From NCBI GenBank assembly GCA_001790095.1, contig MGBH01000001.1, positions 240,001 through 272,000 of the forward strand: a DNA stretch of 32,000 bases, in the 5' to 3' direction. Positions 1,107 through 27,545 of the stretch are shown piece by piece. Numbering within the stretch: position 1 is the first letter of the stretch; each line of letters starts with the position of its first letter. The notes under the pieces were generated by a model. It was not told the origin of the DNA. It worked only from the letters and a program-made list of their open reading frames with translations, and searched no databases. The stretch is from Candidatus Saccharimonadota bacterium. GTDB taxonomy: Bacteria; Patescibacteriota; Microgenomatia; UBA1406; GWC2-37-13. The position numbers and the translations under genes were made by a program.

Positions 1107-2882
1107 ATGTTAGACGATGTCTTCAAGGGATTAAACGAACAACAAAAAAAAGCAGTTTCTTATGTAAAAGGACCCTCAATTATTCTGGCCGGGGCAGGTT
1201 CGGGTAAAACACGAGTGCTTATTTATAAAGTGATACATCTCATAAATAATCATAAGGTTGATTCTTCCTCAATTCTCATGATTACTTTTACTAACAAGGC
1301 TGCAGGAGAGTTGAAAAAGAGAATGCGTTTTCATCAAAAAAAAAGCCTTGGATATGTAGGAACGTTTCATTCTTTTTGTGCTCAGGTATTAAGATCTGAG
1401 GGGATACATATTGGATTAAACAAAGGATTTGTTATATATGATGATGATGATCAGTTAGCCCTCATGAAAGCAATCGTAAAAGAAAAAGAGGTAAAAAGAT
1501 TTTCCCCTTCGTTTATTCTCAACAGAATATCTGCAGCAAAAAACCAACTCATATCTCCTAAAAGATACTTACAGACATTTTCGGATTACTCAGCTTCGCA
1601 AATATACGAATTATATACAGAATATGTTCGCAGATTACGATTGCATCAGGCGGTGGATTTTGATGATCTCATCATGCTAACAGTGGAATTATTTGCTAAA
1701 TATCCTTCAATACTTAAACAGTATCAAGACAAATATACATACATTTTTGTTGATGAGTTCCAGGACACCAATTATGCACAGTATCACTTAACTCAGTCTT
1801 TGGGCAATAGAAACAACAATATAACTGTTGTTGGAGATTTCTCACAGAGTATTTATTCTTGGAGAGGGGCAGATATGCGCAACCTTGAAAAATTCAAAGA
1901 GGATTTCTCTCAATGTAAAACATTTCTTTTGGAACGTAATTACCGCTCATCACAAAAGATACTCGACTTTGCCTATGAAATTATTGCAAAAAACGAAGGG
2001 CATCCGATACTCAAACTCTATACTGAAAATAAAATAGGAGAAGAAATTCCCATATATGAAGCTCGTGATGAAAGTGATGAGGCCTTTTATGTATCTACAG
2101 AGATAGAAAGATTAAGAGGCATATATCTATATGAATCAATAGCAGTTCTATATCGTACAAACGCTCAGTCTCGGGCGATTGAAGAATCCTTTTTGCATTA
2201 TGGAATCCCATATGTTTTAATTGGCGGTACGCGATTTTATGAACGCAAAGAGGTTAAAGATGTACTTTCTTATATGAGACTACTTATTAACCCACTTGAT
2301 GGGGTTGCTAGGGAACGAATAATAAAACTTGGGAAGCGAAAATGGATCGCTTTTAAAGAAAAATACGAAGAACTGCAAAAAAAATCAGAAAATTTACAAA
2401 CGGCAGAATTAATGGAGCGGGTTTTTCAGGAAACCGGATATTTGGAGCTATACAATCCAAGCGACGAAGAAGACTATAGTCGTCTGGAAAATATCAAAGA
2501 GTTAAAATCAGTTGCGATTCATTTTCCAAACATTATCGAGTTTCTCCAGCAAGTTGCCTTGGTTGAATCAGAGTATTCTGAAGGAGAAAAGAAAAAGAAA
2601 GCAAATGAGGGGGTCAGGTTAATGACTCTTCATCAAGCTAAGGGACTAGAGTTTAAGGCAGTGTTTATCGTTGGGGTAGAAGATGGTATATTACCGCATG
2701 CTCGTTCAATTGATGATTATTTTCAGTTAGAAGAAGAGCGGAGATTATTTTATGTGGGGATTACGAGAGCGCAAGAAAAGCTCTATATTAGCTACGCAAG
2801 ACGCAGATATATGTATGGAAGAAGGGGAGAGGGGATGAAGTCAAGATTTTTAGGGGGAGAGGAAGCAAGGATTGATTGGTGA
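1107..2882 (+). CDS. UvrD/PcrA/Rep-family superfamily-1 DNA helicase (compact, 591 aa)
   Basis: Walker A AGAGSGKT, ITFTNKAA, motif II FVDEFQDTN, motif III GDFSQSIYSWRGA, and C-terminal MTLHQAKGLEF ... LFYVGITRA. Confidence 0.9.
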   Translation: MLDDVFKGLNEQQKKAVSYVKGPSIILAGAGSGKTRVLIYKVIHLINNHKVDSSSILMITFTNKAAGELKKRMRFHQKKSLGYVGTFHSFCAQVLRSEGIHIGLNKGFVIYDDDDQLALMKAIVKEKEVKRFSPSFILNRISAAKNQLISPKRYLQTFSDYSASQIYELYTEYVRRLRLHQAVDFDDLIMLTVELFAKYPSILKQYQDKYTYIFVDEFQDTNYAQYHLTQSLGNRNNNITVVGDFSQSIYSWRGADMRNLEKFKEDFSQCKTFLLERNYRSSQKILDFAYEIIAKNEGHPILKLYTENKIGEEIPIYEARDESDEAFYVSTEIERLRGIYLYESIAVLYRTNAQSRAIEESFLHYGIPYVLIGGTRFYERKEVKDVLSYMRLLINPLDGVARERIIKLGKRKWIAFKEKYEELQKKSENLQTAELMERVFQETGYLELYNPSDEEDYSRLENIKELKSVAIHFPNIIEFLQQVALVESEYSEGEKKKKANEGVRLMTLHQAKGLEFKAVFIVGVEDGILPHARSIDDYFQLEEERRLFYVGITRAQEKLYISYARRRYMYGRRGEGMKSRFLGGEEARIDW

Positions 2883-2939
2883 TTTGTACCGGCAGGTATT
2901 ATTATATATAATACATTTTATACGATATAACAGAAAGCT

Positions 2940-3536
2940 ATGATAAGAGATAAAACAGGTAAACAATTAACGACGTTGGAGATAGTGCAAAAAATGAGAA
3001 ATAGGTTTTATAAAGTAATTGTTGAAATTGAAATATATATTCTTCACATCGTAGGGTATATTCCATCACATACTATACGCAACTTTTTATATTTTCTTGC
3101 AGGAATACAGATAGGAAAAGGTTCAGCCATACACATGGGAGCTCATTTTCATGATCCAAAGCGCATTGTAATTGGTGAGGATACGATCATTGGTGAGGGA
3201 ATGGTTTTTGATGGGCGAGATAAAATAAAGATTGGAAACCATGTAGATATAGCCTCTCAAGTTATGTTTTATAATAGCGAACACGATATACACAGTGAGC
3301 ATTTCGAAGCAATTTGTGCACCAGTTATTATTGAAGACTATGTATTTATAGGACCGCGTTCCATCATTCTTCCTGGGGTTACAGTTGGCAGGGGGGCAAT
3401 CATTGCAGCTGGGGCTGTCGTAACAAAAGATGTTCCTCCATTTTCAATTGTTGGAGGAGTGCCGGCACGGCTAATTGGAGAGCGGAAAAACAAAGATCCT
3501 CACTATCGTTTGGGAAGGGCTGAATTGTTTCGCTAA
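2940..3536 (+). CDS. Hexapeptide-repeat (left-handed beta-helix) O-acetyltransferase, WcaF/Maa-like, with N-terminal hydrophobic segment
   Basis: Hexapeptide repeats [14 protein letters not shown] and [44 protein letters not shown]. Confidence 0.75.
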
Positions 3537-11778: not shown

Positions 11779-12849
11779 TTATACGTCTAACAAAAAGCGT
11801 TTAAGCGATATATAATACTCTTTCAGGCTGTTTATGTCTACCCATTCGCAATCAGTGTGAAGACCATAACCAGTTGGACCAAACTCTACTCCATCACAAC
11901 CAACTCTATTAAAATGCCTTATATCTGAGGCTCCGTAGCCAGCGATGATGGATGCTGATTTATTAATTGATTTTTTTACTGCGTTTTGCAATTTTTTTAG
12001 ATAAACATTGTTTTTACTTGTAAACTGAGCTGGTTCTTTTACTTTGATGTCAAGTTGGACATAAGAAGGGAGAGTTTTTTTTAACAGACTAACGATTGTT
12101 TCCGTATCTTTGGGAATATAACGGATGTCAATCCCCACTGTACAATCATCTGCTACTTTATTGTATGTTTGGTTGGATGAATTTATCGTTGATAAATTTA
12201 GTGTTGTTTTCCAAATGGGTTTTTGAGGTTCTGGAAATTTTTTTGCAAGTTGATTAAGCGCTTGATTCATCATACGGATTGCATTTGACCCCTGCCACAG
12301 ATAGGCAGCGTGTGCCGTCTTTCCTTTGATGGAAAGATTTGCCCACAGCACTCCCTTTGCTTCATTTTTCACCTTGAGGTCGGTTCCTTCACCTGCAATT
12401 GCAAACTCTGCACGGACTCCCTCATCAGCTTGATATTTTGCACCATTGAAGCCGCCAATCTCTTCATCTGTCACCAGTTGAAGCGCAAGAGGATAATTGA
12501 CTTTTTGAGCAACTTCTTTAAATACGAGAAGTTCAACTGCAGCTGCAGCCTTCATGTCAAAGGCCCCTCTAGCATACAACCTCCCATCTTTTTCAACAGA
12601 AGCGTATTGTTCTTTATTACCCGGTACAACATCAAGATGAGCATCAAGGATGATTTTAAAGTTACGAAGTTTTTTGTTTTCTTTGTAAACCAAGATGCTA
12701 GGTATTCCATCCTTCTCAAATTCTTCAATATGAAAGCCTGAGAGCTCTCCTTTTGCGATGTCCAGAACCTCATGAAGAGCTTTATTATTTTCCTTGATAG
12801 ACGGGATTGAAATAAATTGTTTAGTTAGAGAAAGAATTTTGGTTAACAT
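11779..12849 (-). CDS. M20-family metallopeptidase/deacylase (ArgE/DapE/LysK-like)
   Basis: DAHLDVVPG, GAFDMKAAAA and VTDEEIGG motifs, with M20 length and layout. Sits 21 nt downstream of the HTH gene and may belong to the same transcript. Confidence 0.8.
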   Translation of the reverse strand: MLTKILSLTKQFISIPSIKENNKALHEVLDIAKGELSGFHIEEFEKDGIPSILVYKENKKLRNFKIILDAHLDVVPGNKEQYASVEKDGRLYARGAFDMKAAAAVELLVFKEVAQKVNYPLALQLVTDEEIGGFNGAKYQADEGVRAEFAIAGEGTDLKVKNEAKGVLWANLSIKGKTAHAAYLWQGSNAIRMMNQALNQLAKKFPEPQKPIWKTTLNLSTINSSNQTYNKVADDCTVGIDIRYIPKDTETIVSLLKKTLPSYVQLDIKVKEPAQFTSKNNVYLKKLQNAVKKSINKSASIIAGYGASDIRHFNRVGCDGVEFGPTGYGLHTDCEWVDINSLKEYYISLKRFLLDV

Positions 12850-13342: not shown

Positions 13343-14449
13343 CTAATTATTCAATACATTTGCTCTTAGATTTGTAACAAACTCCTCAAGCTGTCTACGC
13401 ACAGTTTCATCAAGTCGTATATGATGAAGGCATTGATCATAGTCATTCATTGTTTTTCGAAAACCGACTTGCCATTCAGGTGCTTTTTTTTCACTTACCT
13501 GCCAGGGTCGAACCATTGCAGGTATAAGACTATCTTCTGACATCAATAGAACACGTTTACCATCATGAACGTTTTCATAACCAGTAACGATCTGTAGGCC
13601 AATTGCTTCAGATAATCTGAGGACATATTCCAAATCTTCTTTTGAGGTTAGTTCATTTGTCTCCAAAAAGCCTGATGCATCAGGTTTGATGATTGTCATC
13701 TTTATATTACCATGCGAAATAATGGTAACATCTTGTTCATCATATAACACCTGAAATCCGTTTTGTGCTTCGCTTAACATACCATATATTTTTTCTCTTA
13801 CCTTTTGTGCTGAAGGCAGTCTTGTGGTGGCGACTTCTCTGTTTTTTTCTTCTGGGTTATGTTGGGCTTTTTCCATATTTTCAATCAATTTTTCGGCTAG
13901 TAAGGGTGGCCATTTTCTTAGTCCTTCATATAAAGACTCAGAGGGTATTTCAAGACTGGTCATATGTACCATACTTTCACGTGCTGGACCAACGGGTTTA
14001 TCATCGCCATCTCTATGGTCAAATACTACGTGTTTTCCAGTTTCAATTGAAACGGCTTTTAAACCTGCTCCAAGGCTTGATCTTTGCATACCAATCTGAT
14101 CTGCCCGTGTATCAGTATAAGGATGTGCGTGACGTTTTTCAGCCTCTTGTGCTAAATGAATAGTCATATCTTTTGCCAGTCCATTTTTCCGATAGTCAGG
14201 ATCGACGATAACCCGTTTTATCTCAGCCATTAATCCATCAACTCCTAATACTGCGGTTCCGATAATCCTTTGCAGGTCAGGTTGAAGTAAAGCAATAATC
14301 CTTATTTCACCTTTTGCAATATTACCAGCCAATGATATAGGATCATAAACACTCTCGAATGGATATCCTTTAAAACCTCTTTGGGCGAGTGAAGCCAAAC
14401 CTGTTGCGTCTTTGGGTTGTGCGTTTTGTATTTTATACTCGATACTCAT
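13343..14449 (-). CDS. GNAT-family acyl-CoA N-acyltransferase domain fused to ~200-aa C-terminal domain of unknown family
   Basis: The N-terminal ~160 aa have GNAT layout with acetyl-CoA motif A (RVIVDPDYRKNGLAKDM = R-x-x-G-x-A). I recognise nothing in the C-terminal half. It could be a second, degenerate GNAT fold. Confidence 0.65.
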   Translation of the reverse strand: MSIEYKIQNAQPKDATGLASLAQRGFKGYPFESVYDPISLAGNIAKGEIRIIALLQPDLQRIIGTAVLGVDGLMAEIKRVIVDPDYRKNGLAKDMTIHLAQEAEKRHAHPYTDTRADQIGMQRSSLGAGLKAVSIETGKHVVFDHRDGDDKPVGPARESMVHMTSLEIPSESLYEGLRKWPPLLAEKLIENMEKAQHNPEEKNREVATTRLPSAQKVREKIYGMLSEAQNGFQVLYDEQDVTIISHGNIKMTIIKPDASGFLETNELTSKEDLEYVLRLSEAIGLQIVTGYENVHDGKRVLLMSEDSLIPAMVRPWQVSEKKAPEWQVGFRKTMNDYDQCLHHIRLDETVRRQLEEFVTNLRANVLNN

Positions 14450-14471
14450 AAGTTAAGAAATAATGTTTGTT

Positions 14472-14492
14472 TATAACTAAAAAGCCCGCCTT
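14472..14492. repeat. 21-nt exact direct repeat, copy 1 (TATAACTAAAAAGCCCGCCTT)
   Basis: Identical to 16555-16575. Both copies continue into the same GGCGGG stem with different loops. A related copy (ATAACTAAAAAACCCCGC) is at 16438-16455. Confidence 0.9.
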
Positions 14493-14501
14493 GCGGCGGG
14501 T
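14476..14501 (-). terminator. GC-rich hairpin + T-tract (intrinsic terminator-like) 27 nt upstream of the GNAT gene start
   Basis: Stem CCCGCC/GGCGGG (14485-14490 / 14495-14500), loop TTGC. On the minus strand it is followed by CTTTTTAG. Confidence 0.6.
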
Positions 14502-14524
14502 ATATTTTGATTTACTATTAATCT

Positions 14525-14596
14525 TTATGCATCAAAAACCCCGCCCAAGATCGGGCTCATAAAGTAGAAGAAGTAACTATTTCTTTGGGGTAACAT
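14525..14596 (-). CDS. Speculative 23-aa micro-ORF (MLPQRNSYFFYFMSPILGGVFDA); may instead be a non-coding leader
   Basis: The ATG lies 6 nt downstream of a TGnTATAAT extended -10, which is leaderless geometry. The 3' half overlaps a weak hairpin. No Shine-Dalgarno sequence. Confidence 0.2.
   Translation of the reverse strand: MLPQRNSYFFYFMSPILGGVFDA
14534..14557 (-). terminator. Weak hairpin + T-tract
   Basis: The minus strand reads GCCC-GATCTT-GGGC followed by GGGGTTTTTGA. The stem is only 4 bp. Confidence 0.3.
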
Positions 14597-14602
14597 GAAG
14601 AT

Positions 14603-14630
14603 ATTATACATTATCAATACCATTTTTCAA
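14603..14630 (-). promoter_or_regulatory. Sigma-70-type promoter with extended -10, internal to the cassette
   Basis: The minus strand reads TTGAAA (14630-14625), 16 nt, TGtTATAAT (-10 at 14608-14603). It lies in the 218-nt gap between the ligase and GNAT genes. Confidence 0.55.
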
Positions 14631-14667
14631 TCACTATTTATTTTTTTTAGTAAACATAATCTTATTT

Positions 14668-16434
14668 TTAGGCAAATAAAGCTTTAATATTTCCATTGAG
14701 ACCTGCTAAGAATGTATGGTATGCACTGCCTAAATTATCCATACAGTCTTTGATTGCATCTTCTTCAGACATTCCTCTTTTTTCAATCAAATCCCTTGCT
14801 CTTTGTTTTAACCAATGCGATAAAGTACCGATACCGCTTTTATAGAATCCATCGATTGATACAACACCGTCAGGTTCTCTATAATTCTGAAAAGATTGTT
14901 GATTTGGTACCTGAGCGCTTTTCATTAATTCATGCATAATACCTTGAGGTAATCCTTGATATTCGACTTCCTGTCCGAAGTCATGTATAGGTTCATTGAC
15001 AAAAAGAAGCAGCTGATTAAATAATTCTCCTGCGGTTGCCTGTTGATCATCTGCTGTCTGCAACACTGCGTCAACGCCTCTCTTTGCAACCTCAATACTA
15101 TTTATATGAGCTAATCGTAATATATTTTCTGTTATTTGAGGAGGAAATAACTGCGGGTACTCATGGGACAGTTGTTCCATTTTCCCAGCTTTAGCATATA
15201 GTTGTAATTTCCACATTAAAACTCTTGTAAATTCTTGTATCGCAGCAAGCTTGAGTACATTTCCTCCAAAAGTATCCATATTTGAAATTTCAAGAGTACC
15301 ATTTGGTCCAATATCTACTCGAATACGATCAGTATGGTGACCGCCGGCCCTTGCGGGAGATGGTATGTTTTCAGGTGAATGAGGATCATTATTTTTTAAC
15401 CCAGCCTCAGCAAGAGTAAAAAATTCACCTGCGTTTTCGGGTAAGGGCTTAACATATGACCCTCCTGAGGGTGATCCGCGCCACCTTGCTGGATATCTTA
15501 TAGACATCCAATCATCGTTATTTAACATATCATAGCTTTCTGTATCACTCACTCTTCTTGGACTTGACTCATCTTGGATATACATATCATGAAGATTTGG
15601 CTGAGTTGATCCATGAGCAAAAGGTCCAGCTAAAGATAGAGCATATAATAGCGGGGCTATTTGTTGGTACATATTCATAGCTTTTAATCCCGATTCAAGA
15701 TCTAACATCTCAACATGCACTTGAAACGAAGAGCCGATAAAATGTCTTACGTTTTCCCATCCCATAAACTCCATTGCAATTCTTTTCACATATGGGTCTT
15801 GGCTTGTATCTTTTGGTTCAAGCGGTCTGTGAGGAAAAGCGGAAATTGGAGTTAATCTCCATCCTTCTTTTTCCGCAGCTTTTGCCAAAGTTTTAAGTGA
15901 CCTTGCCATTGATAATGCAGCCTGGAAGGTGTGGGGGGTATGATGAAAGTTCATCTCTATACAGCTTGTCGCTAATTCGGCTGAGTAACCAATTTGTTTT
16001 TTGTCGGGATCAAGTTCTTCAAATATTGGATCTTCGGCTTCAAAATGTGCTCCATTATTTGCTTCTTCCAATGTATTTGGCACAGAGCTGTTAGGTGCCA
16101 TTACGGGTGCTTCTGTTTGATTGCCCGGATCCCACACATACATTTCAAATTCTCCACCCGTTTCAACCCCTTGTAGAGAAGCAGATGGTTTTGGTTCAGT
16201 AAAAACAGGTCGAATGTCTGATCCATGTAATTTCGTATCATTCTCCCTTGCTCGCCAAAAGGGACTTCTTATATACCCTGTGGGTAGACCATCTTTCCAA
16301 ATAAATCCTCCCTCAGTCTTAGGATCAAAATTGATATATTCTCCGTTGTCATCTAACAATCTACGAAATGCATCTTCACGAATCCCTTTGCTCGTCGTCA
16401 TAGCTTTATGATTTATCTTTTTTGCTTCTTTCAT
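14668..16434 (-). CDS. Enlarged GCS2/YbdK-type carboxylate-amine ligase (glutamate-cysteine-ligase family 2 fold)
   Basis: An ordered motif series matches my memory of E. coli YbdK: GVETGGEFEMYVWDP (GIELEMQVVNP), AELATSCIEM (ESMLELAT), SSFQVHVEM (GQHVHVG), ALSLAGPFAHG (ALSAASPYMQG), GTLEISNMDT (GTVEVRVMDT). At 588 aa against ~370 aa, it has a ~90-aa N-terminal extension and internal insertions. Confidence 0.65.
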   Translation of the reverse strand: MKEAKKINHKAMTTSKGIREDAFRRLLDDNGEYINFDPKTEGGFIWKDGLPTGYIRSPFWRARENDTKLHGSDIRPVFTEPKPSASLQGVETGGEFEMYVWDPGNQTEAPVMAPNSSVPNTLEEANNGAHFEAEDPIFEELDPDKKQIGYSAELATSCIEMNFHHTPHTFQAALSMARSLKTLAKAAEKEGWRLTPISAFPHRPLEPKDTSQDPYVKRIAMEFMGWENVRHFIGSSFQVHVEMLDLESGLKAMNMYQQIAPLLYALSLAGPFAHGSTQPNLHDMYIQDESSPRRVSDTESYDMLNNDDWMSIRYPARWRGSPSGGSYVKPLPENAGEFFTLAEAGLKNNDPHSPENIPSPARAGGHHTDRIRVDIGPNGTLEISNMDTFGGNVLKLAAIQEFTRVLMWKLQLYAKAGKMEQLSHEYPQLFPPQITENILRLAHINSIEVAKRGVDAVLQTADDQQATAGELFNQLLLFVNEPIHDFGQEVEYQGLPQGIMHELMKSAQVPNQQSFQNYREPDGVVSIDGFYKSGIGTLSHWLKQRARDLIEKRGMSEEDAIKDCMDNLGSAYHTFLAGLNGNIKALFA

Positions 16435-16442
16435 ATAATAAC

Positions 16443-16467
16443 TAAAAAACCCCGCATTTGGCGGGGT
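16443..16467 (-). terminator. GC-rich hairpin + T6 (intrinsic terminator-like) ending 8 nt before the ligase ATG
   Basis: Stem CCCCGC/GCGGGG (16450-16455 / 16461-16466), loop ATTTG. The minus strand continues TTTTTTAGTTATTAT then ATG at 16434. Confidence 0.6.
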
Positions 16468-16489
16468 TGTAATTATTAATTAATAAATA

Positions 16490-16555
16490 CTAACCCGCTA
16501 TATAGAGGGTAAGGATAATAATAACAAGAACTAAATTTAATACAGATTCTGTCAT
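16490..16555 (-). CDS. Speculative 21-aa hydrophobic micro-ORF (MTESVLNLVLVIIILTLYIAG)
   Basis: ATG to TAG ORF bracketed by two terminator-like hairpins. It encodes a single TM-helix-length hydrophobic core. No Shine-Dalgarno sequence. Confidence 0.3.
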   Translation of the reverse strand: MTESVLNLVLVIIILTLYIAG

Positions 16556-16575
16556 ATAACTAAAAAGCCCGCCTT
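16555..16575. repeat. 21-nt exact direct repeat, copy 2 (TATAACTAAAAAGCCCGCCTT)
   Basis: Identical to 14472-14492. Read directly from the sequence. Confidence 0.9.
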
Positions 16576-16587
16576 TTGAGGCGGGTT
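16561..16587 (-). terminator. GC-rich hairpin + T-tract (intrinsic terminator-like)
   Basis: Stem CCCGCC/GGCGGG (16568-16573 / 16580-16585), loop TTTTGA. The minus strand continues CTTTTTAGTTAT then the micro-ORF ATG. Confidence 0.6.
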
Positions 16588-16609
16588 TGTGTATCTTTCT
16601 ATACAACAA

Positions 16610-16672
16610 TTACTCCGCCCTTTTGGGGGTAATAAGTTGAATAAAAAGGACTGATAATGATTTGTGTACCAT
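16610..16672 (-). CDS. Speculative 20-aa micro-ORF (MVHKSLSVLFIQLITPKRAE), C-terminal Glu; may instead be a non-coding leader
   Basis: The ATG is 11 nt downstream of the -10 element of the promoter at 16684-16712, so it is nearly leaderless. It is followed by the hairpin at 16561-16587. Confidence 0.2.
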   Translation of the reverse strand: MVHKSLSVLFIQLITPKRAE

Positions 16673-16683
16673 GTTAGTCTACT

Positions 16684-16712
16684 AATATACCAAATGCTTT
16701 CTCAAAATGCAA
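16684..16712 (-). promoter_or_regulatory. Sigma-70-type promoter with extended -10, starting 7 nt after the serS stop
   Basis: The minus strand reads TTGCAT (16712-16707), 17 nt, TGgTATATT (-10 at 16689-16684). Confidence 0.5.
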
Positions 16713-16719
16713 GGGGTTT

Positions 16720-17979
16720 TTACTTTTTCTTGATGACATCAAATCCGGTTAAGGATTTAAGTACATCGGGGATAGCTACAGTGCCATCTTCTTGTTGATA
16801 ATTCTCAAGAAGGGCGATTAAGATCCTTGGTGAAGCGACCGCTGTATTATTAAAAGAAAAACAGTATTCTTTTGTTCCATCCTTTTTCCGGTATTTGATA
16901 TTGAGTCTTCTTGTTTGGAAATCACCCATGATCGAATTGCTCATGGTTTCACCATAACCTTGTCGGGATGGCATCCAGGTTTCGGTGTCATATTTTTTGT
17001 GCTGAGGCTCACCCATGTCTCCGGTACACATGAGAAGTACTTGATAAGGAAGATTCAGATCCTGCAGGATCTCTTCTGCATTTTTTTGAAGTTCATCATG
17101 AATTTTGCGCGCCTCATTAATATTACTTTTTCCTATGATTACCTGCTCGATTTTCCAAAATTCATGTAGTCGATACATGCCTTTGGTATCTTTTCCATAT
17201 GATCCAGCTTCTTTTCTAAAGCAGGGGGAGAAAGCGACAAATTTTTTAGGCAAATCTTCTTCTTTGAGAATTTCGTTTGCATAATAAGATGTGACAGGCA
17301 CTTCTGCAGTGCCGGAAAGATATGCATCTTCATCGTTAAGCTTATATACCTCTTCCTGTCCCCAAGGGAATTGGCCAGCGCCAAAAAGGGTAAATCCCTT
17401 AACTATAGCTGGTGCAATAAGAGGAGTGTAGCCTTTTTTAATGAGTTTCTGTAAAACATAAAAAAGAAGACTTAAATGTAAGACCGCTCCTTCATTTTTC
17501 AGAAAGTATCCTCTGAAACCTGAAACTTTTACCCCTCTTTCAAAGTCGATAATGTTTAGGTCTTTTCCCAACTCTATATGAGACTTTATAGGAAATTTAA
17601 ACTGCTTCGGCGTTCCCCACTGGTGTTGGAGTACATTGCCTGTTGCATCTTTACCAATTGGGACTTCATCAAAGGGAATATTGGGAATGAAACTTAAAAG
17701 CGTCTGCAATTGCTTCTCTGTTGCATTAAGCGTTTCTTCTATTGATTTCAGATCTTCTTTGATTTGCCTACCTCTTGTCTTTGTTTCCTCAGTAAATGTC
17801 TTTTTTGAAATCAAATTTCTTTCTTCTCGAAGTTTTTGTGATTGTGCTGCTAGTTTTTTTCTTTCTTCATCAAGGGAAAGTATCTTTTCCACATTATCAA
17901 TGTATTTTTCTCTATTTTTATTACGAAGAGCGTCAATTACTTTTTGTTTATTGAGTCGTATAAAATCTATGGATAGCAT
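16720..17979 (-). CDS. serS: Seryl-tRNA synthetase
   Basis: N-terminal coiled-coil arm, class II motif 2 region FRKEAGSYGKDTKGMYRLHEF, and motif 3 region NNTAVASPRILIALLENYQ. Confidence 0.95.
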   Translation of the reverse strand: MLSIDFIRLNKQKVIDALRNKNREKYIDNVEKILSLDEERKKLAAQSQKLREERNLISKKTFTEETKTRGRQIKEDLKSIEETLNATEKQLQTLLSFIPNIPFDEVPIGKDATGNVLQHQWGTPKQFKFPIKSHIELGKDLNIIDFERGVKVSGFRGYFLKNEGAVLHLSLLFYVLQKLIKKGYTPLIAPAIVKGFTLFGAGQFPWGQEEVYKLNDEDAYLSGTAEVPVTSYYANEILKEEDLPKKFVAFSPCFRKEAGSYGKDTKGMYRLHEFWKIEQVIIGKSNINEARKIHDELQKNAEEILQDLNLPYQVLLMCTGDMGEPQHKKYDTETWMPSRQGYGETMSNSIMGDFQTRRLNIKYRKKDGTKEYCFSFNNTAVASPRILIALLENYQQEDGTVAIPDVLKSLTGFDVIKKK

Positions 17980-18608: not shown

Positions 18609-20924
18609 TTATACAGCGATTGCTGCTAAAGTTACTTCACCACCACAGTATTTTGTGATTATATCTATTGTTTCCTTTAATGATCGTTCAACCATCTCTC
18701 TTGTGATGTCGTATATACCATCGATATTAATGAGGATGTTTTTTGTTTGTTCAGTTACCTTGGTTCGTACAGCATCTCGATAATTAAAATCTATATTATA
18801 ACCACCCACCTTGTCAAAATAAGCAAGTTCGGTTGTTTTATAAAGAGTTGGTTCTTTGTCGCCCAAAAGATGTATATGCTCTTCTGGGTTTGGAAAACGC
18901 AGTATGGTAGGAAAGGATACCGCATCAAGATCAAAAGCTCCAACTGAGACGCGGTGACTCATCACCACAAGGTTATATGCATCCACACACGTATTGACAC
19001 AATAGAGCCCTTTTTTCATAGCAACTCTTCGGAGGAGCGCCTCAGGTGATGGGCGGCGAGAGTGCCAGTCAATCTTCATCTGTCTATACAAGGTACGATA
19101 TGACAGAACTTCAGGATAAGAACTTATGACCTCATTTGTGAGGGTTTCTTGTGTCTTAAGGAACTCTTGTTGTTTGGTGTTAAGATCGGGATTTTCTTTT
19201 TGGATTGATACCCCTTTAATAATCGCAACTCCAACACTAACTGTAGGGAACTGTTTTTTTACTAAGGGATGAATAGAAAAAATCTTTTCATCATAAAGGG
19301 TTGGGAACTTGAATGCGGCTTTGGGGGATTGGTCTTTTTGCTTGATTGAATCTGTAAGTTTCTTAGCAGTCGTATTTACTCCTAGTTCTAAAATAAGATC
19401 TGCTATTTTGGGACCGAACTGTTTTCCTGTTAGAATTTGATATAAAAGTCCAAATACATCTTTTGGTTTAACAAGAGCTGTTTTCATGGTTGCAAAGACT
19501 ACGTTTTGAATAGATTCCCGGTCTGAGGATGGAAGATTTTCCAGTTGACGGGTGAGAGAAATGATGAATTTTTTTTGCTGATCGTTCAACTTAACAAGGG
19601 GGGGTGTGGTTTCTTTGATGGTGCTCGTTCCTTCAGCATATTTCTTAAGAAATATATTTGCATAGGTAATGCGTTCATTGAGAAGAGCGAGTTCGGTTGG
19701 GGAAAGCGACCTTCCTAGTTGTTTCTCAAACATAGATTTGGGATCCCCCTTGCTTTTGAGTATGTTTGCTATTGTCCGAAAACGGGGAAGAAAATACCTT
19801 TTTTTGACAAGCGGCTTGACTTCTGACAGTTCAATAATTCGGGCAAAATCAGACAGTACTTCACCTTGTTTGTTTTGAGGGATTACGCCTTCATATTTAT
19901 CAAAATATGCATTCATACAGCGATCATAATCATCAAAGAGATTAGGTATGGTATCGCCCGCAGGATCAAAGTCAAGCACCGTTCCAATAGGAGTTCTTAC
20001 GATTAAGAATCGTAGTACTTCAGGTGGTAATATTTTTGTCATTCCAATAGCCGTTGCACCAACCCCCTTGGATGAAGACATTTTTCTACCGCCAATTATA
20101 AACCATTCGTAGGGAATAGGATAGGGAGGGTTATATTGTAACACCTCTTTACATATTGCAGAACCAAAATCATATGAACCACCCTTTGACATGTGATCTT
20201 TTCCCGCTCCTTCTATGCTTACACCCACTACTTTCCATGTTGCCGGCCAGTCCAGTCTCCATGGTAGTTTTCCATTGTTGCCGACAGGTTTAATTTTACC
20301 TTCATATCCACAGCCCGTAGTCCATTTGACTGCATCTATAGCACATCGGTAATGCACATATACTCCATCCCATTTGTGTGCTTGGGTAGTACTAAGCTTT
20401 CCGCATTTTTCGCAAACAGGCGTATAGGGGATCCAGTTTGCTTTTTTTATGGCTTTTGATACACGAAAATATATCCCCCTTATTTTATCTGCACTATCCA
20501 AAATAGTTCGTACTACATCGTCCATTTTTCCTGAACCATAGAGCTCTGAAGACCAGATGATTTTGGGATGACAGTTTATCGATTCAAACACATGTATAAA
20601 TTCTTTTCCATAGGTTTGAGCAAAGCTATCGTATCCTTTTTCAGGTGGGGGGATTTTATAAAGAGGCATTCCCATATATTTGCTCCATTTTGTTGCATCA
20701 AGATACGAAGGCATGCCGTCCATAGGGTCATGATCGTTTATGACATATGAAAAAGTTGCATTGACTCCGGCAGCAACAAGTCCTTTATACATGAGGTCAT
20801 GTATCACTACTCCACGAAGTGCACCTACATGGACACGTCCCGATGGTGTCTTCATATCATCCACCCACTCAAGAGGTATTTGCCTATCTTTTATTATTTT
20901 TGCTTGGCGGTCGACCCAAATCAT
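18609..20924 (-). CDS. lysK: Class I lysyl-tRNA synthetase fused to a C-terminal B3/B4 (PheRS-beta-type) domain
   Basis: HIGH-equivalent TPSGRVHVGALRG and KMSKS-equivalent KMSSSKG. The C-terminal ~225 aa (nt 18609-19292) carry RRPSPEALLRRVAMKKGLYCVNTCVDAYNLVVMSHRVSVGAFDLD, typical of COG3382/B3_4 proteins. Confidence 0.85.
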   Translation of the reverse strand: MIWVDRQAKIIKDRQIPLEWVDDMKTPSGRVHVGALRGVVIHDLMYKGLVAAGVNATFSYVINDHDPMDGMPSYLDATKWSKYMGMPLYKIPPPEKGYDSFAQTYGKEFIHVFESINCHPKIIWSSELYGSGKMDDVVRTILDSADKIRGIYFRVSKAIKKANWIPYTPVCEKCGKLSTTQAHKWDGVYVHYRCAIDAVKWTTGCGYEGKIKPVGNNGKLPWRLDWPATWKVVGVSIEGAGKDHMSKGGSYDFGSAICKEVLQYNPPYPIPYEWFIIGGRKMSSSKGVGATAIGMTKILPPEVLRFLIVRTPIGTVLDFDPAGDTIPNLFDDYDRCMNAYFDKYEGVIPQNKQGEVLSDFARIIELSEVKPLVKKRYFLPRFRTIANILKSKGDPKSMFEKQLGRSLSPTELALLNERITYANIFLKKYAEGTSTIKETTPPLVKLNDQQKKFIISLTRQLENLPSSDRESIQNVVFATMKTALVKPKDVFGLLYQILTGKQFGPKIADLILELGVNTTAKKLTDSIKQKDQSPKAAFKFPTLYDEKIFSIHPLVKKQFPTVSVGVAIIKGVSIQKENPDLNTKQQEFLKTQETLTNEVISSYPEVLSYRTLYRQMKIDWHSRRPSPEALLRRVAMKKGLYCVNTCVDAYNLVVMSHRVSVGAFDLDAVSFPTILRFPNPEEHIHLLGDKEPTLYKTTELAYFDKVGGYNIDFNYRDAVRTKVTEQTKNILINIDGIYDITREMVERSLKETIDIITKYCGGEVTLAAIAV

Positions 20925-21848: not shown

Positions 21849-21879
21849 TCCCTCTCCGAATCGGAGAGGGATTTTGTTT
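21849..21879. terminator. Bidirectional intrinsic terminator
   Basis: Perfect palindrome TCCCTCTCCGA-A-TCGGAGAGGGA flanked by A6 on the left and TTTTGTTT on the right. It serves the minus-strand gene ending at 21890 and any plus-strand transcript from the tRNA promoter. Confidence 0.8.
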
Positions 21880-21889
21880 AGTTTTTATA

Positions 21890-22939
21890 TTAGTTTGCTG
21901 GAGCGCATCCTGCAGCAGACGTTGTAGTACCTGAACCTTCTGCGGCTTCATCAGTCTTTGATAAAGACACAGCTATATCAGCCTTTGATAGTTCACTGGC
22001 ACAAAAACCAGGTTTTTCTTTACTTCCACAACATACCAATTGTTTGATGGCATCAGGAGTGCGTCCGCCAAAGTCAAACTCAGACACAGTTTGTTTTTCA
22101 TTTGAGATAAGAGTTGGTGATCCACTAACTCCATATTTATTTGCTAAAGTAAAATCAGCTTGAGCATATTTTAAACCTCGATTCGCATCGCCTGTACATG
22201 CGGTTAACTCAGATGTATCAACTCCTGTTGTAATAAGACACTCATCTGTTTTGCCCTCCATCATGTAACAGGATACATATGGCCAGTATTTCTCTTTCTG
22301 TTCTTCACGAATACATATTTGCTTTAGATTTTCTTGTGCTTCTTTATCACCGTGCATAGATGTAATCTTTCCGTTTTCAACTGATCCAATATATTTAATA
22401 TTCAAATAAGACGATAAATCTGGCGCCTCGTTCAGGGCCTTTTTAAAGACTCTTTGCATTTGAAGTCCAAAAGGACAATCAGCTACGACATACGCGGTAA
22501 GACTAGCTTTGTCCGTTTTTGGAACATCATCACATGTAAGCTTTTTAGTCTCTTTTGCCGGTTGCTGACTTTTTGACAGTTCGTCAACCTTTATACCCGA
22601 TGTAAAAAGGATTTTTCCATCACGGGAAATGTATGAAGTATATTTTTGTCCAGCTACTTCTAACTGAAATTCAACTAGTCCGCTTGCCTCTTTTACGTTT
22701 AAGATAGAGACTTTGGTAGAGGGATTGTTGATTACTTTTTTTACAGCTTCAGGGATAATTTGCGTTTTCATTTTGTTGATATCAGGACCCGATCCTTTGA
22801 CAAAACGTAAAACCAAAAAGACTGCAATAAGCCCTGCAATAAATGCGAGCGGTTTCCAATTATTATTTAACTGAACATTTCCTGGTAGATTTTTTTCTAC
22901 TTCAGGACTTTGGTTATGAGAAGTGTGAATTTTTTTCAT
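21890..22939 (-). CDS. Membrane-anchored thioredoxin-fold (DsbA-like) protein with CPFG motif and Cys-rich C-terminus
   Basis: N-terminal TM (LAFIAGLIAVFLVLRF). VVADCPFGLQ sits where DsbA-type proteins carry CxxC. A cis-Pro-like loop reads VSGSPTLISN. The tail contains LVCCGSKEKPGFCASE and AAGCAPAN. Confidence 0.5.
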   Translation of the reverse strand: MKKIHTSHNQSPEVEKNLPGNVQLNNNWKPLAFIAGLIAVFLVLRFVKGSGPDINKMKTQIIPEAVKKVINNPSTKVSILNVKEASGLVEFQLEVAGQKYTSYISRDGKILFTSGIKVDELSKSQQPAKETKKLTCDDVPKTDKASLTAYVVADCPFGLQMQRVFKKALNEAPDLSSYLNIKYIGSVENGKITSMHGDKEAQENLKQICIREEQKEKYWPYVSCYMMEGKTDECLITTGVDTSELTACTGDANRGLKYAQADFTLANKYGVSGSPTLISNEKQTVSEFDFGGRTPDAIKQLVCCGSKEKPGFCASELSKADIAVSLSKTDEAAEGSGTTTSAAGCAPAN

Positions 22940-25763: not shown

Positions 25764-27545
25764 TTACTTTGCGTAAATCCTGTATAAATTACTTCCTATT
25801 TTTTCATTTTTAAATATAGTTATTTTTCCTATTTCCTTTGTATTCTTTACATGGGGGCCACCGCAAAACTCCTTAGAATAGTTACCAATAAAATATACTT
25901 TTACCATATCCGGGTACTTTTCGCGGAAAAAGGATTTGGCGCCGAGTTTTTCTGCTTCAGCCTTAGGCAGTATTTTAAACTCCACAGGGAGAGCTTCTTG
26001 TATTTTTGAGTTGATGGTGTCCTGAGCCTTTGCAATCTGTTCGGGTGACGGCTTTTGGGTTGAGTAAAAATCAAACCTGAGACGTTCACCGGTTATATTT
26101 GAGCCTTCCTGTCTGATCTCGGATCCTAAAACATCATAAAGTGCTTGGTGGAGCAAGTGGGTCGCTGTATGGTAGTTGAGGGTTTGAGCACTATTATCTG
26201 CAAGCCCACCCTTAAACTTTCCCGATGAGGCGGTACGGGATAAATCTTTATGTTTTTGGAACTCTGCGTAAAATTGTTTTTTATCAACGGTTTGTCCTTT
26301 TTCCCTAAAAAGTTCCTCGGTGATCTCTAACGGGAATCCGTAGGATTGATAAATATCAAAAGCTTGTTTTCCGTCAATAGTCTGAATTTTTTGGATCTCT
26401 TTGAGTCCCCGATCAATGCTTTTGCTGAAACGATTTATTTCCTCAACGATGACGTTCGTAATGAGTTTTTTATCTTGTTCACGGTCAAAGTGAACTTTAT
26501 CGTAGGTGACCAAGACTCCTTGATCGGCGATCAATCCCAGTTCCTTTGCATTGAGTTTACCAGTTAGCTTGTGCATTTTTACCGCCGCTCTTCTTAGTAG
26601 TCTTCGAAGAAAATAACCCTGTTCTTTGTTGGAAGGATAGACACCGTTTTTGATAATAAAAACAGACGCCTTTATGTGATCTGCTATGACACGAATCTGG
26701 GATTTATTTTCAAGATCGGTATATTTTTTGCTCGATGATTGTTCGATAGACGTAATGATTGTTGCATATAGATCAGTTTTAAAGATATCAGGATCGTTGT
26801 TTACGGCTGCAAGTATCCGTTCCAGGCCGCCTCCGAAATCCACATTTTTTTCAGGTAGTTCACTAAAGGACCCGTCGGTATTTTTCTTAAACTGCATAAA
26901 GACCGAATTTCCTATTTCCAAGAAGCGTCCGCAATCACAATTAGGATGGCACTTCTCACCATATGTGGGATTATGCTCCACCTGAGTGAATTCATAAAAC
27001 ACTTCGCTATCCGGTCCTCCGGGTTCACCGGGCGGCATATTTTCTGGCACGCCTGCCCGTGACCACCAGCTTTCAGGTCCGTAGCGGAAAATATGATTTT
27101 CTTTTAATCCCAATTTTTTCCAGGTTTCATAAGTTTCTTCATCTGCTCCTATGTTTTTTATCCCTGCAAAAACAGCAACGTATAATTTCTCTTTGGGAAG
27201 TTTCAAAATATCTGTGAGAAATTCCCAAAACCAAGTGATCTGCTCTTTTTTGAAGTAAGTTCCAAGCGACCAGTTACCCATCATCTCAAAAAAGGTAGTG
27301 TGTCTGTTATCTCCGATTTCTTCGATGTCTTGCGAGCGGAAACAGGGTTGGATGTTATATAATTTCTTTCCTAACGGGTGTGGTTCGCCAAGAAGGTAGG
27401 GAACTAATTGTTGCATGCCAGATCCTGTGAATAATGTGGTTGGGTCATCTTTTGGTACAAGAGGGATTGGGGGGATTTCTTTATGATCATGCGACAGGCA
27501 ATATTTCATAAAAAGCTCCCTAAGTTTGAAATGAGTCATTGCCAT
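25764..27545 (-). CDS. alaS: Alanyl-tRNA synthetase, short form (catalytic + minimal editing domain, no C-Ala domain)
   Basis: DPTTLFTGSGMQQ, FEMMGNWSLGTYFK and GGGLERILAAV. Editing-site zinc motifs HTATHLLHQAL and CGGPHV. The ORF ends ~30 aa after CGGPHV (593 aa). Confidence 0.9.
   Translation of the reverse strand: MAMTHFKLRELFMKYCLSHDHKEIPPIPLVPKDDPTTLFTGSGMQQLVPYLLGEPHPLGKKLYNIQPCFRSQDIEEIGDNRHTTFFEMMGNWSLGTYFKKEQITWFWEFLTDILKLPKEKLYVAVFAGIKNIGADEETYETWKKLGLKENHIFRYGPESWWSRAGVPENMPPGEPGGPDSEVFYEFTQVEHNPTYGEKCHPNCDCGRFLEIGNSVFMQFKKNTDGSFSELPEKNVDFGGGLERILAAVNNDPDIFKTDLYATIITSIEQSSSKKYTDLENKSQIRVIADHIKASVFIIKNGVYPSNKEQGYFLRRLLRRAAVKMHKLTGKLNAKELGLIADQGVLVTYDKVHFDREQDKKLITNVIVEEINRFSKSIDRGLKEIQKIQTIDGKQAFDIYQSYGFPLEITEELFREKGQTVDKKQFYAEFQKHKDLSRTASSGKFKGGLADNSAQTLNYHTATHLLHQALYDVLGSEIRQEGSNITGERLRFDFYSTQKPSPEQIAKAQDTINSKIQEALPVEFKILPKAEAEKLGAKSFFREKYPDMVKVYFIGNYSKEFCGGPHVKNTKEIGKITIFKNEKIGSNLYRIYAK

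Follow-up and report, generated by a model that had tools for sequence, protein, structure and literature searches.

Two probable leader-peptide attenuators in series ahead of a YbdK-like ligase gene in Candidatus Roizmanbacteria

Why should a gene be preceded by two terminator-like hairpins, each with a very small open reading frame (ORF) in front of it and the second almost touching the start codon? The question is raised by a minus-strand region (16435-16719) between serS and the gene for a YbdK/GCS2-like carboxylate-amine ligase on contig MGBH01000001.1 (positions 240,001 to 272,000; the window, below, is this whole stretch of 32,000 nucleotides). A first-pass annotation had offered two answers: the micro-ORFs encode precursor or carrier peptides for the ligase, or they are parts of a two-step transcription-attenuation leader. 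Our analyses of the window and of related loci favor the latter, and we consider it likely, judging by the sequences, that two ribosome-mediated (leader-peptide) transcription attenuators in series control the YbdK-like ligase in Candidatus Roizmanbacteria. What we observe is the anatomy of the region, its conservation, the covariation of segments 2, 3 and 4 (the antiterminator strand at the end of the micro-ORF and the 5' and 3' arms of the terminator, respectively), the placement of ORFs and stop codons, and the amino-acid bias of the leaders. The main region, read on the minus strand from 16300 to 16900 with its small ORFs listed, holds the following features.

16720 (end), minus strand: TAA stop codon of serS, read from the sequence
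16712-16707, minus strand: -35-like TTGCAT, 7 nt past the serS stop, read from the sequence
16692-16684, minus strand: extended -10 element TGgTATATT, 17-nt spacer from TTGCAT, promoter-like by sequence
16672-16610, minus strand: leader ORF1, peptide MVHKSLSVLFIQLITPKRAE plus stop, from the ORF listing
16651-16631, minus strand: hydrophobic codon run V-L-F-I-Q-L-I of ORF1
16648-16596, minus strand: extended 1:2 hairpin (anti-antiterminator) of unit 1, predicted fold
16629-16625 with 16620-16615, minus strand: apex of the 1:2 hairpin, CCCCC paired with GGGCGG, predicted fold
16620-16579, minus strand: predicted antiterminator of unit 1, GGGCGG (16620-16615) with CCCGCC (16585-16580)
16605-16590, minus strand: predicted spacer hairpin TGTAT/ATACA, enclosed by the unit 1 antiterminator
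16585-16562, minus strand: intrinsic terminator T1, CCCGCCT-caaa-AGGCGGG, stem 16585-16568, then CTTTTT, by scan and folding
16555-16490, minus strand: leader ORF2, peptide MTESVLNLVLVIIILTLYIAG plus stop, from the ORF listing
16543-16505, minus strand: hydrophobic run of ORF2
16499-16461, minus strand: predicted antiterminator of unit 2, AGCGGGT (16499-16493) with CCCGC of the T2 5' arm
16490-16469, minus strand: predicted AU spacer hairpin inside the unit 2 antiterminator
16468-16444, minus strand: intrinsic terminator T2, AACCCCGC-caaat-GCGGGGTT, stem 16468-16448, then TTTT, by scan and folding
16434-14668, minus strand: YbdK/GCS2-like carboxylate-amine ligase, 588 aa, by Pfam, AlphaFold model and conserved N terminus

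The ATG of ORF1 lies 11 nt beyond the -10 hexamer, which predicts a near-leaderless mRNA; that of ORF2 lies 12 nt past the T1 stem, and the AGCGGGT strand of unit 2 directly precedes the TAG stop of ORF2. Everything that the first-pass annotation had described is there: the extended -10 promoter (TTGCAT-17-TGgTATATT) stands where it was placed, 7 nt after the serS stop, and both the near-leaderless ORF ending in Glu and the second ORF are present. The hairpins are real, with their stems shifted slightly from the coordinates first given, and the T tract does adjoin the ligase gene, its last base (16444) lying 9 nt before the ATG at 16434 and not 8 nt as stated. Neither terminator leaves room for a promoter ahead of the start codon that follows it, the space from T2 to the ligase ATG being these 9 nt, and the earlier claim that ligase expression requires read-through of two terminators is supported. 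A candidate promoter inside ORF2 (TTGTTA-17-TATATA, 16527-16499) was rejected, as it matches only 4+4 of 12 positions and its transcript would be without segment 2 and always terminate.

The arrangement is conserved well beyond the window. Loci with ligase homologues, 32 in all, were gathered from genome and metagenome collections and from contigs with exact protein matches; the 40 homologues detected all come from Microgenomates-type members of the candidate phyla radiation (CPR; Woesebacteria, Roizmanbacteria and others), and the ligase cluster was found in metagenome-assembled genomes of Candidatus Roizmanbacteria. About 25 of these related Microgenomates loci had upstream DNA for a comparison of the leaders, and every one of them shows the same succession: a promoter-like site, followed by a Leu-, Ile- and Val-rich micro-ORF of 16-33 codons and by a GC-rich terminator abutting the ligase ATG, with its T tract ending 3-31 nt before the start codon. 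The closest relatives, whose ligases are 58-67% identical, keep the order ham1-serS-leader-ligase and have two terminators in series as in the window; more distant relatives (Woesebacteria and others) have one terminator before the ligase. The adjacency of terminator and ligase ATG holds even in relatives without serS upstream, and 21 non-redundant relatives have an ORF equivalent to ORF1.

Each unit repeats the terminator 3' arm within the final codons of its micro-ORF, and this copy is able to pair with the 5' arm. We assessed this pairing without alignment, taking the best duplex of the terminator 5' arm with the 95 nt upstream in 44 non-redundant units and comparing it with 200 shuffles; for this and for the folding tests, dinucleotide shuffles were used. 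The duplex reached p<=0.05 in 34 of the 44 units, with a mean z of -2.8, and the antiterminator partner always lay 11-51 nt, mostly 24-38 nt, upstream of the 5' arm. Within the window, unit 1 scored -11.7 against -5.9 in the shuffles (z -4.17) and unit 2 gave a z of -3.7, one shuffle of the 200 being equally good, while a third unit, found downstream of the ligase and described below, gave a z of -4.43. Arm and partner change together across lineages, in the pairs CCCGCC/GGGCGG, ACCCCGC/GCGGGG, AGACCTCTC/GGGGAGGTCT and ACCTCCC/GGGAGG. In an all-against-all comparison of the four classes, three paired within themselves at -10.8 to -12.4 kcal/mol and one at -9.4; pairing between CG-type and CU-type classes was much weaker (-6.0 to -9.0 kcal/mol), and cross-pairing within the two CG-type classes, as within the two CU-type classes, was about equal to self-pairing. 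The predicted antiterminator strand is, in short, one that covaries with the terminator 5' arm across lineages. The spacer between the paired segments often folds into a small hairpin of its own (p<=0.05 in 16 of 41 units), and its sequence is lineage-specific: TGTAT/ATACA in the window, AAAAGG/CCTTTT or GTAAT/ATTAC elsewhere. Of the two readings first offered, the two-step attenuation leader is the one that gains support here, from the terminators lying 3-31 nt before the ligase ATG in the relatives and from covarying antiterminators that overlap the ends of the ORFs.

The leader RNAs also stand out when folded. The minimum-free-energy structure of unit 1 (16677-16562) is the form with the 1:2 hairpin, at -33.3 kcal/mol and a z of -4.68; the leader of unit 2 has a z of -3.22. 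For the predicted antiterminator folds, the values are -15.8 kcal/mol and z -3.99 in unit 1 (16622-16575), -12.6 kcal/mol and z -3.87 in unit 2 (16500-16456), and -17.6 kcal/mol and z -3.0 for that of unit 3 folded alone. A custom terminator scan of both strands of the 32 kb returned 11 matches, the clearest GC-rich ones being T1, T2, a third at 14500-14485 and a bidirectional one at 21849-21871; the other matches are weaker stems within or beside genes. The three leader hairpins share a tail, CTTTTTAGTTAT, and a repeated mobile element was considered; it was rejected, there being only three copies in 32 kb, each directly before a gene, and relatives retain the hairpins at the same places.

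The ORFs are placed with equal regularity. In 41 of the 44 units, the stop codon of an ATG-initiated ORF at least 12 aa long lies between -18 and +12 nt relative to the 3' end of segment 2, where 5.8 such units would be expected from the shuffles and where 17 was the maximum in 200,000 simulations; in the window, the distance from stop to segment 2 is +1 nt in unit 1 and 0 nt in unit 2. We then folded the nascent leader in silico up to the terminator loop, masking the footprint of a ribosome codon by codon. In this model, the antiterminator forms for as long as the A site has not moved beyond the hydrophobic or Phe run; a ribosome within the last 5-9 codons blocks it. When no ribosome is placed on unit 1 of the window, the antiterminator fails to form because the extended hairpin at 16648-16596 sequesters GGGCGG; the modeled folding behavior of unit 1 is that of a trp/ilv-type attenuator.

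We infer the actual termination and read-through, and the identity of the amino acids sensed, from this anatomy, and the proposed course of events would be as follows. Transcription would begin at the extended -10 promoter just past serS, and the near-leaderless ORF1 would be translated while the RNA polymerase advances. With ample charged tRNAs (for Leu, Ile and Val, and some Phe), the ribosome would reach the ORF1 stop and cover GGGCGG (segment 2), leaving segment 3 (CCCGCC) to pair with segment 4; T1 would form and transcription would halt. A ribosome stalled in V-L-F-I-Q-L-I would instead leave segment 2 free to pair with segment 3, and the resulting antiterminator would permit read-through. 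The decision would be repeated at ORF2 and T2, the ligase being made only after two successive read-throughs, and the third unit, with a Phe/Tyr-rich leader, would act likewise on the downstream GNAT gene.

Is there reason to believe in the promoter and in leaderless initiation? Taken alone, the single promoter match in the region is not significant, 34 such sites being found against 34.8 expected. Across 30 related leaders, however, a -35/-10 pair is placed with the -10 ending 4-15 nt before the ATG of the micro-ORF; the mean best promoter score is 9.3 of 12 against 5.7 in shuffles, scores of at least 10 of 12 are reached by 57% of the leaders against 1.1% of the shuffles, and the TG of an extended -10 is present in many. 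The genes of the window (G+C content 37.5%) are without Shine-Dalgarno sequences, and many have a -10-like (TATAAT-like) hexamer 6-10 nt 5' of the ATG; the starts inspected include those at 1107, 2940, 6522, 11779-12849 and 25764-27545. This suggests that leaderless mRNAs are the apparent norm in the source organism, and a leaderless initiation of the micro-ORFs fits it, as does the distance of 6-14 nt that separates the promoter-like sites of the related units from the micro-ORF start.

The same results bear on the simplest alternative, that the hairpins are plain terminators (T1 being that of serS) accompanied by chance ORFs, or that the units are independent small-RNA (sRNA) genes without effect on the ligase. 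It is true that no other terminator follows serS before T1 and that the sub-threshold Rfam matches include sRNAs ending in terminators; terminated leader transcripts of other attenuators can also act as sRNAs (PMC6614838). As T2 and the ligase ATG, 9 nt apart, leave no room for a promoter, as the adjacency is universal in the relatives, and as the ORFs are far beyond chance and the antiterminators covary, we find this explanation very improbable.

Whether the micro-ORFs matter as peptides was the other half of the question, and the first-pass annotation had proposed to decide it by looking in relatives for codon periodicity or for conserved base pairing. The outcome is mixed: ORF1-type frames vary evenly, the ORF2 family varies like a coding sequence, and the terminator and antiterminator strands covary. 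For ORF1-type leaders, the variable columns by codon position number 6/6/5 and 8/7/6, with 6/8/10 and 6/5/8 in two other groups; the peptides range from 16 to 33 aa, and their last residues are the mere translation of the RNA segment GGGCGG. Of 21 non-redundant leaders, only 2 (the window and locus L002) end in Glu, other endings including A, G, R, V, L, Q and T, and the comparison of leader peptides revealed no conserved core, recognition sequence or C-terminal acceptor in the ORF1 type. The flat codon variability, the RNA-set C termini and the rarity of the Glu argue against a precursor or carrier peptide, and this part of the earlier proposal is not upheld. It had its attractions, for a small gene followed by a hairpin and an enzyme gene is the layout of lantibiotic operons, the Glu end recalls carrier peptides such as LysW or Pup, and the modeled fold of the ligase also resembles, at lower rank, the Pup ligase PafA and Dop. 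The order of small ORF, hairpin and enzyme gene is indeed shared with the genes for ribosomally synthesized and post-translationally modified peptides (RiPPs) that precede a leaky terminator; here, however, no peptide core is conserved, the antiterminator overlaps the ORF end, and unrelated genes, with other amino-acid runs in their leaders, have this design in front of them too. Nor does the locus belong among RiPP clusters by its neighbors, a GCS2-like ligase, a GNAT protein and an M20 peptidase, with no RiPP maturation enzyme or enzyme family. The carrier idea was rejected with the Glu, which is not conserved, and we see next to no likelihood of RiPP precursors or carriers on which the ligase acts.

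If the leaders are not products, their composition may be a signal, and the clearest case lies downstream of the ligase, where a third unit occupies the 218-nt gap (14450-14667) before the GNAT gene at 13343-14449.

14630-14479, minus strand: third attenuator unit
14630-14603, minus strand: promoter-like TTGAAA-16-TATAAT, by sequence
14596-14525, minus strand: putatively leaderless ORF MLPQRNSYFFYFMSPILGGVFDA, ATG 6 nt past the -10, by sequence
14575-14561, minus strand: Phe/Tyr run (SYFFYF)
14546-14539, minus strand: segment 2, GGGCGGGG
14500-14485, minus strand: terminator CCCGCC-gcaa-GGCGGG, then CTTTTT, from the scan

Where the window has unit 3, the leaders of relatives contain FFFF or FFFFF if the next gene encodes a protein of about 565 aa, and FFYFF or FFSFY if it is of the GNAT type. 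These second-gene leaders contain 25% Phe, 5.3 times the proteome level; reading in the ORF frame gives 58 Phe, reading in either of the other two frames gives 28, and every C within their T runs falls on a third codon position. The scan of the collected loci brought up further Phe leaders before proteins of 309, 395 and 638 aa. Locus L016 has a Met-rich leader, MKSAYLNMMNMMAMPQKRGGLFR (NMMNMMAM), at 1230-1406 and a Leu-rich one, MKNVTKGVLYLLNLLLLKENFGRPF (LYLLNLLLL), at 2855-3032, each with its own antiterminator and terminator and each before one of two paralogous proteins (482 aa and at least 173 aa). For the two leaders ahead of the ligase, the bias is a mixed one toward branched-chain residues: enrichment is milder in the unit-1-type leaders (Leu 1.9, Ile 1.6 and Val 1.3 times) and reaches 3.1 times for Leu and 2.6 times for Val in the ORF2 family.

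Such runs help to judge another way of stalling the ribosome. Hydrophobic leader peptides are typical of drug-sensing leaders, and an antibiotic or arrest by the nascent chain, as in leaders of the erm, cat or msr type, could take the place of a scarce tRNA, the ligase, GNAT and M20 genes then forming a detoxification or stress module. In favor are two genes of the cluster, for a GNAT acetyltransferase and for a deacylase, and the want of a clean single-amino-acid run in ORF1 and ORF2. Against it, leaders in the same clusters have distinct runs (Phe, Phe/Tyr, Met, Leu), and different single-residue runs before different genes are, as we read the sequences, the signature of charged-tRNA sensing; the design sequesters no Shine-Dalgarno sequence and would exert control by a terminator. 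We regard stalling by a drug or by the nascent chain as quite unlikely.

Several observations weigh against attenuation by charged-tRNA supply, or against parts of it. That CPR bacteria couple translation to transcription and use intrinsic termination is an assumption. The evidence for covariation stems from our custom duplex tests and not from an alignment-based one: loops and spacers differ in length, so that MAFFT did not bring 37 core regions and 16 Phe-type leaders into register, and RNAalifold recovered only three terminator pairs from these alignments. The 1:2 pairing, strong in unit 1 of the window, reaches p<=0.05 in only 4 of 42 units across the family; with its family-wide pairing not significant, we do not claim the anti-antiterminator as a general feature, and this statistical weakness means that the general design may be a simpler, two-state one. 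In some Woesebacteria units (L004, L011 and L012), a simulated ribosome at the stop codon leaves the antiterminator intact. No single amino acid forms a long run in ORF1 or ORF2, and the signal may be Leu, Ile, Val or all three. The genes presumed to be regulated are not known amino-acid biosynthesis genes. Finally, the ORF2 family (MTESVLNLVLVIIILTLYIAG in the window, MGEFLLFALVMAVVYKML and similar peptides in relatives) shares an M-x-E...V-Y pattern, with conservation at second codon positions and with Glu3 and a Tyr near the C terminus unchanged throughout; a peptide serving only as a leader would not need this much.

The last point deserves a reading of its own, in which the micro-ORFs, especially ORF2, are functional small hydrophobic membrane peptides cotranscribed with the ligase, and leaky terminators set the stoichiometry. 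The variable columns of the ORF2 family number 10/3/14 by codon position, with U kept at the second positions and with many synonymous changes, and the family, by this pattern, is clearly translated and may have its own role; in relatives, a third micro-ORF, 5-11 nt after ORF2, carries the antiterminator strand, which in the window is carried by ORF2 itself. The peptides are hydrophobic and about as long as a transmembrane segment. For the ORF1 type, there is little codon periodicity, the lengths spread over 16-33 aa and the C termini are fixed by segment 2; the sister leaders, FFFFF with a polar tail or Met-rich, are not membrane-like, and the covarying antiterminator would be left without a role. 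We hold membrane peptides to be an unlikely explanation of the region as a whole; for ORF2, a membrane peptide and an attenuator are not mutually exclusive.

Leader-peptide attenuation is itself a known mechanism; what is new is the clade (CPR), the targets, and the tandem and near-leaderless layout. At the gathering threshold, the Rfam search that had been suggested for the region (made on the window and five related loci) gave only a tRNA, with no match in the leader region and no T-box or riboswitch core. Below the threshold, Phe_leader (RF01859) came closest for both unit 1 and unit 3, with 35 bits at the former and 25.5 bits at the latter against a threshold of 55, and other leader families (Leu_leader RF00512, Thr_leader RF00506 and Trp_leader RF00513) scored 15-28 bits, Leu_leader reaching 24.6 against a threshold of 50; these leader and sRNA matches are driven largely by the terminators. 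The region would work like the Rfam leader-peptide families, yet it is not a member of them. With ilvL, ivbL and leuL, the attenuators of ilvGMEDA, ilvBN and leu, it shares a short Leu/Ile/Val-rich leader ORF, mutually exclusive antiterminator and terminator, and a choice that would depend on the position of the ribosome; one leader, at locus L001, ends in 'IIIPP...', which recalls E. coli IlvL. It differs from them in being near-leaderless and without a Shine-Dalgarno sequence, in its two serial units, in its YbdK-like ligase target and in its CPR host.

Likewise, unit 3 and its relatives resemble pheL/pheM (RF01859; PMC3082878) in having runs of 4-6 Phe codons just before alternative hairpins, whereas the gene downstream is neither pheA nor pheST, its product being a GNAT protein or one of about 565 aa without known domains. 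A leader ORF that starts at, or a few nucleotides from, the transcription start is known from the leaderless leader peptides of Deinococcus deserti (PMC4007540), a bacterium of another phylum; the targets here are not recognized amino-acid genes, and the start is taken from promoter-to-ATG spacing and not from differential RNA sequencing (dRNA-seq). Branched-chain leader-peptide attenuation outside Proteobacteria is represented by the Leu-rich peptide of the Staphylococcus aureus ilv-leu attenuator (PMC5794164) and by the Corynebacterium ilvBNC attenuator (PMC11857589, PMC10272879), which are single units on the biosynthetic operons of prototrophs, unlike the tandem seen here. A full-text literature search found nothing on leader-peptide attenuation in Patescibacteria/CPR.

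What the regulated genes do is less easily said. The ligase matches Pfam GCS2 with 22.9 bits, and its profile gave no sequence-level match in the Protein Data Bank (PDB). The AlphaFold model (pLDDT 93) has YbdK (1r8g) as its best PDB fold match, with a TM-score normalized to the target of 0.76, followed at lower rank by glutamate-cysteine ligases (GCL), PafA/Dop and glutamine synthetases (GS); the fold search places the enzyme only at the level of the YbdK/GCL/GS/PafA superfamily. The public gene call for the ligase (577 aa) begins at the second ATG, within the region 16434-16402. An N-terminal NHKAM motif, upstream of that later ATG, is conserved in 33 homologues, and because of it we take the 588-aa start at 16434 to be the correct one. 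For the partner proteins of 565, 482, 395, 309, 638 and 173 aa, Pfam returned nothing, and the leaders suggest a link of these partner genes with the supply of hydrophobic and aromatic amino acids. Other neighbors were seen in the flanks of L025 and L026 and at 1831-2559 of L030, where the clusters contain a class-IV aminotransferase, an AMP-binding enzyme, an AstE/AspA-type deacylase, a shikimate kinase and a Peptidase_C26/GATase; they hint at amino-acid or gamma-glutamyl chemistry.

Microgenomates are thought to lack most amino-acid biosynthesis. As a tentative idea, to which we give somewhat less than even credence, these CPR bacteria may carry a small regulon of amino-acid-specific attenuators in which the composition of each leader reports the substrate of the enzyme behind it, pointing to an undescribed route of hydrophobic or aromatic amino-acid salvage or synthesis. 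The candidate pairings would be Leu/Ile/Val with the YbdK-like ligase, Phe with the 565-aa protein, Phe/Tyr with GNAT, and Met and Leu with the paralogous proteins. If attenuation operates here, these minimal and largely auxotrophic bacteria would monitor their charged-tRNA pools directly, with no protein regulator, and leaderless translation would be coupled to transcription tightly enough for attenuation. Leader composition would then serve as a functional hint for the ligase, for the proteins of 565, 482, 395 and 309 aa and for GNAT. With two serial units, the effects would multiply and the response would be steeper than that of one attenuator.

The minus-strand gene order leading to the region is greA, a class-I lysS-B3_4 fusion, ham1, serS, the leader region and the GCS2/YbdK-like ligase, which is followed, after the 218-nt gap, by the 368-aa GNAT gene, a 156-aa ORF and the M20 deacylase. 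The fusion (18609-20924, minus strand, 771 aa) joins a class-I lysyl-tRNA synthetase to a C-terminal B3_4 domain, a domain known from the PheRS beta subunit. Besides the three leader hairpins, the only other clearly strong terminator in the window is the bidirectional one at 21849-21871 (TCCCTCTCCG/CGGAGAGGGA), between a tRNA-Glu gene and an ORF at 21890-22939.

Among the related loci, L001 (4360-4510), L019 (about 2640-2800) and L020 (about 2400-2520) differ from the window in that terminator 1 is separated from ORF2 by an insert of 120-165 nt. It consists of a long covarying 5' hairpin and a conserved core (GCGNGGNNGTARNCCTC ... GGAGGAAG) and has no match in Rfam; it could be a structured RNA of a new kind. 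Locus L003 has, between the promoter-like site and the leader ORF (1700-1930), a short palindromic element (GTCATTCC...GGAATC) in several copies, which may belong to a miniature repeat family.

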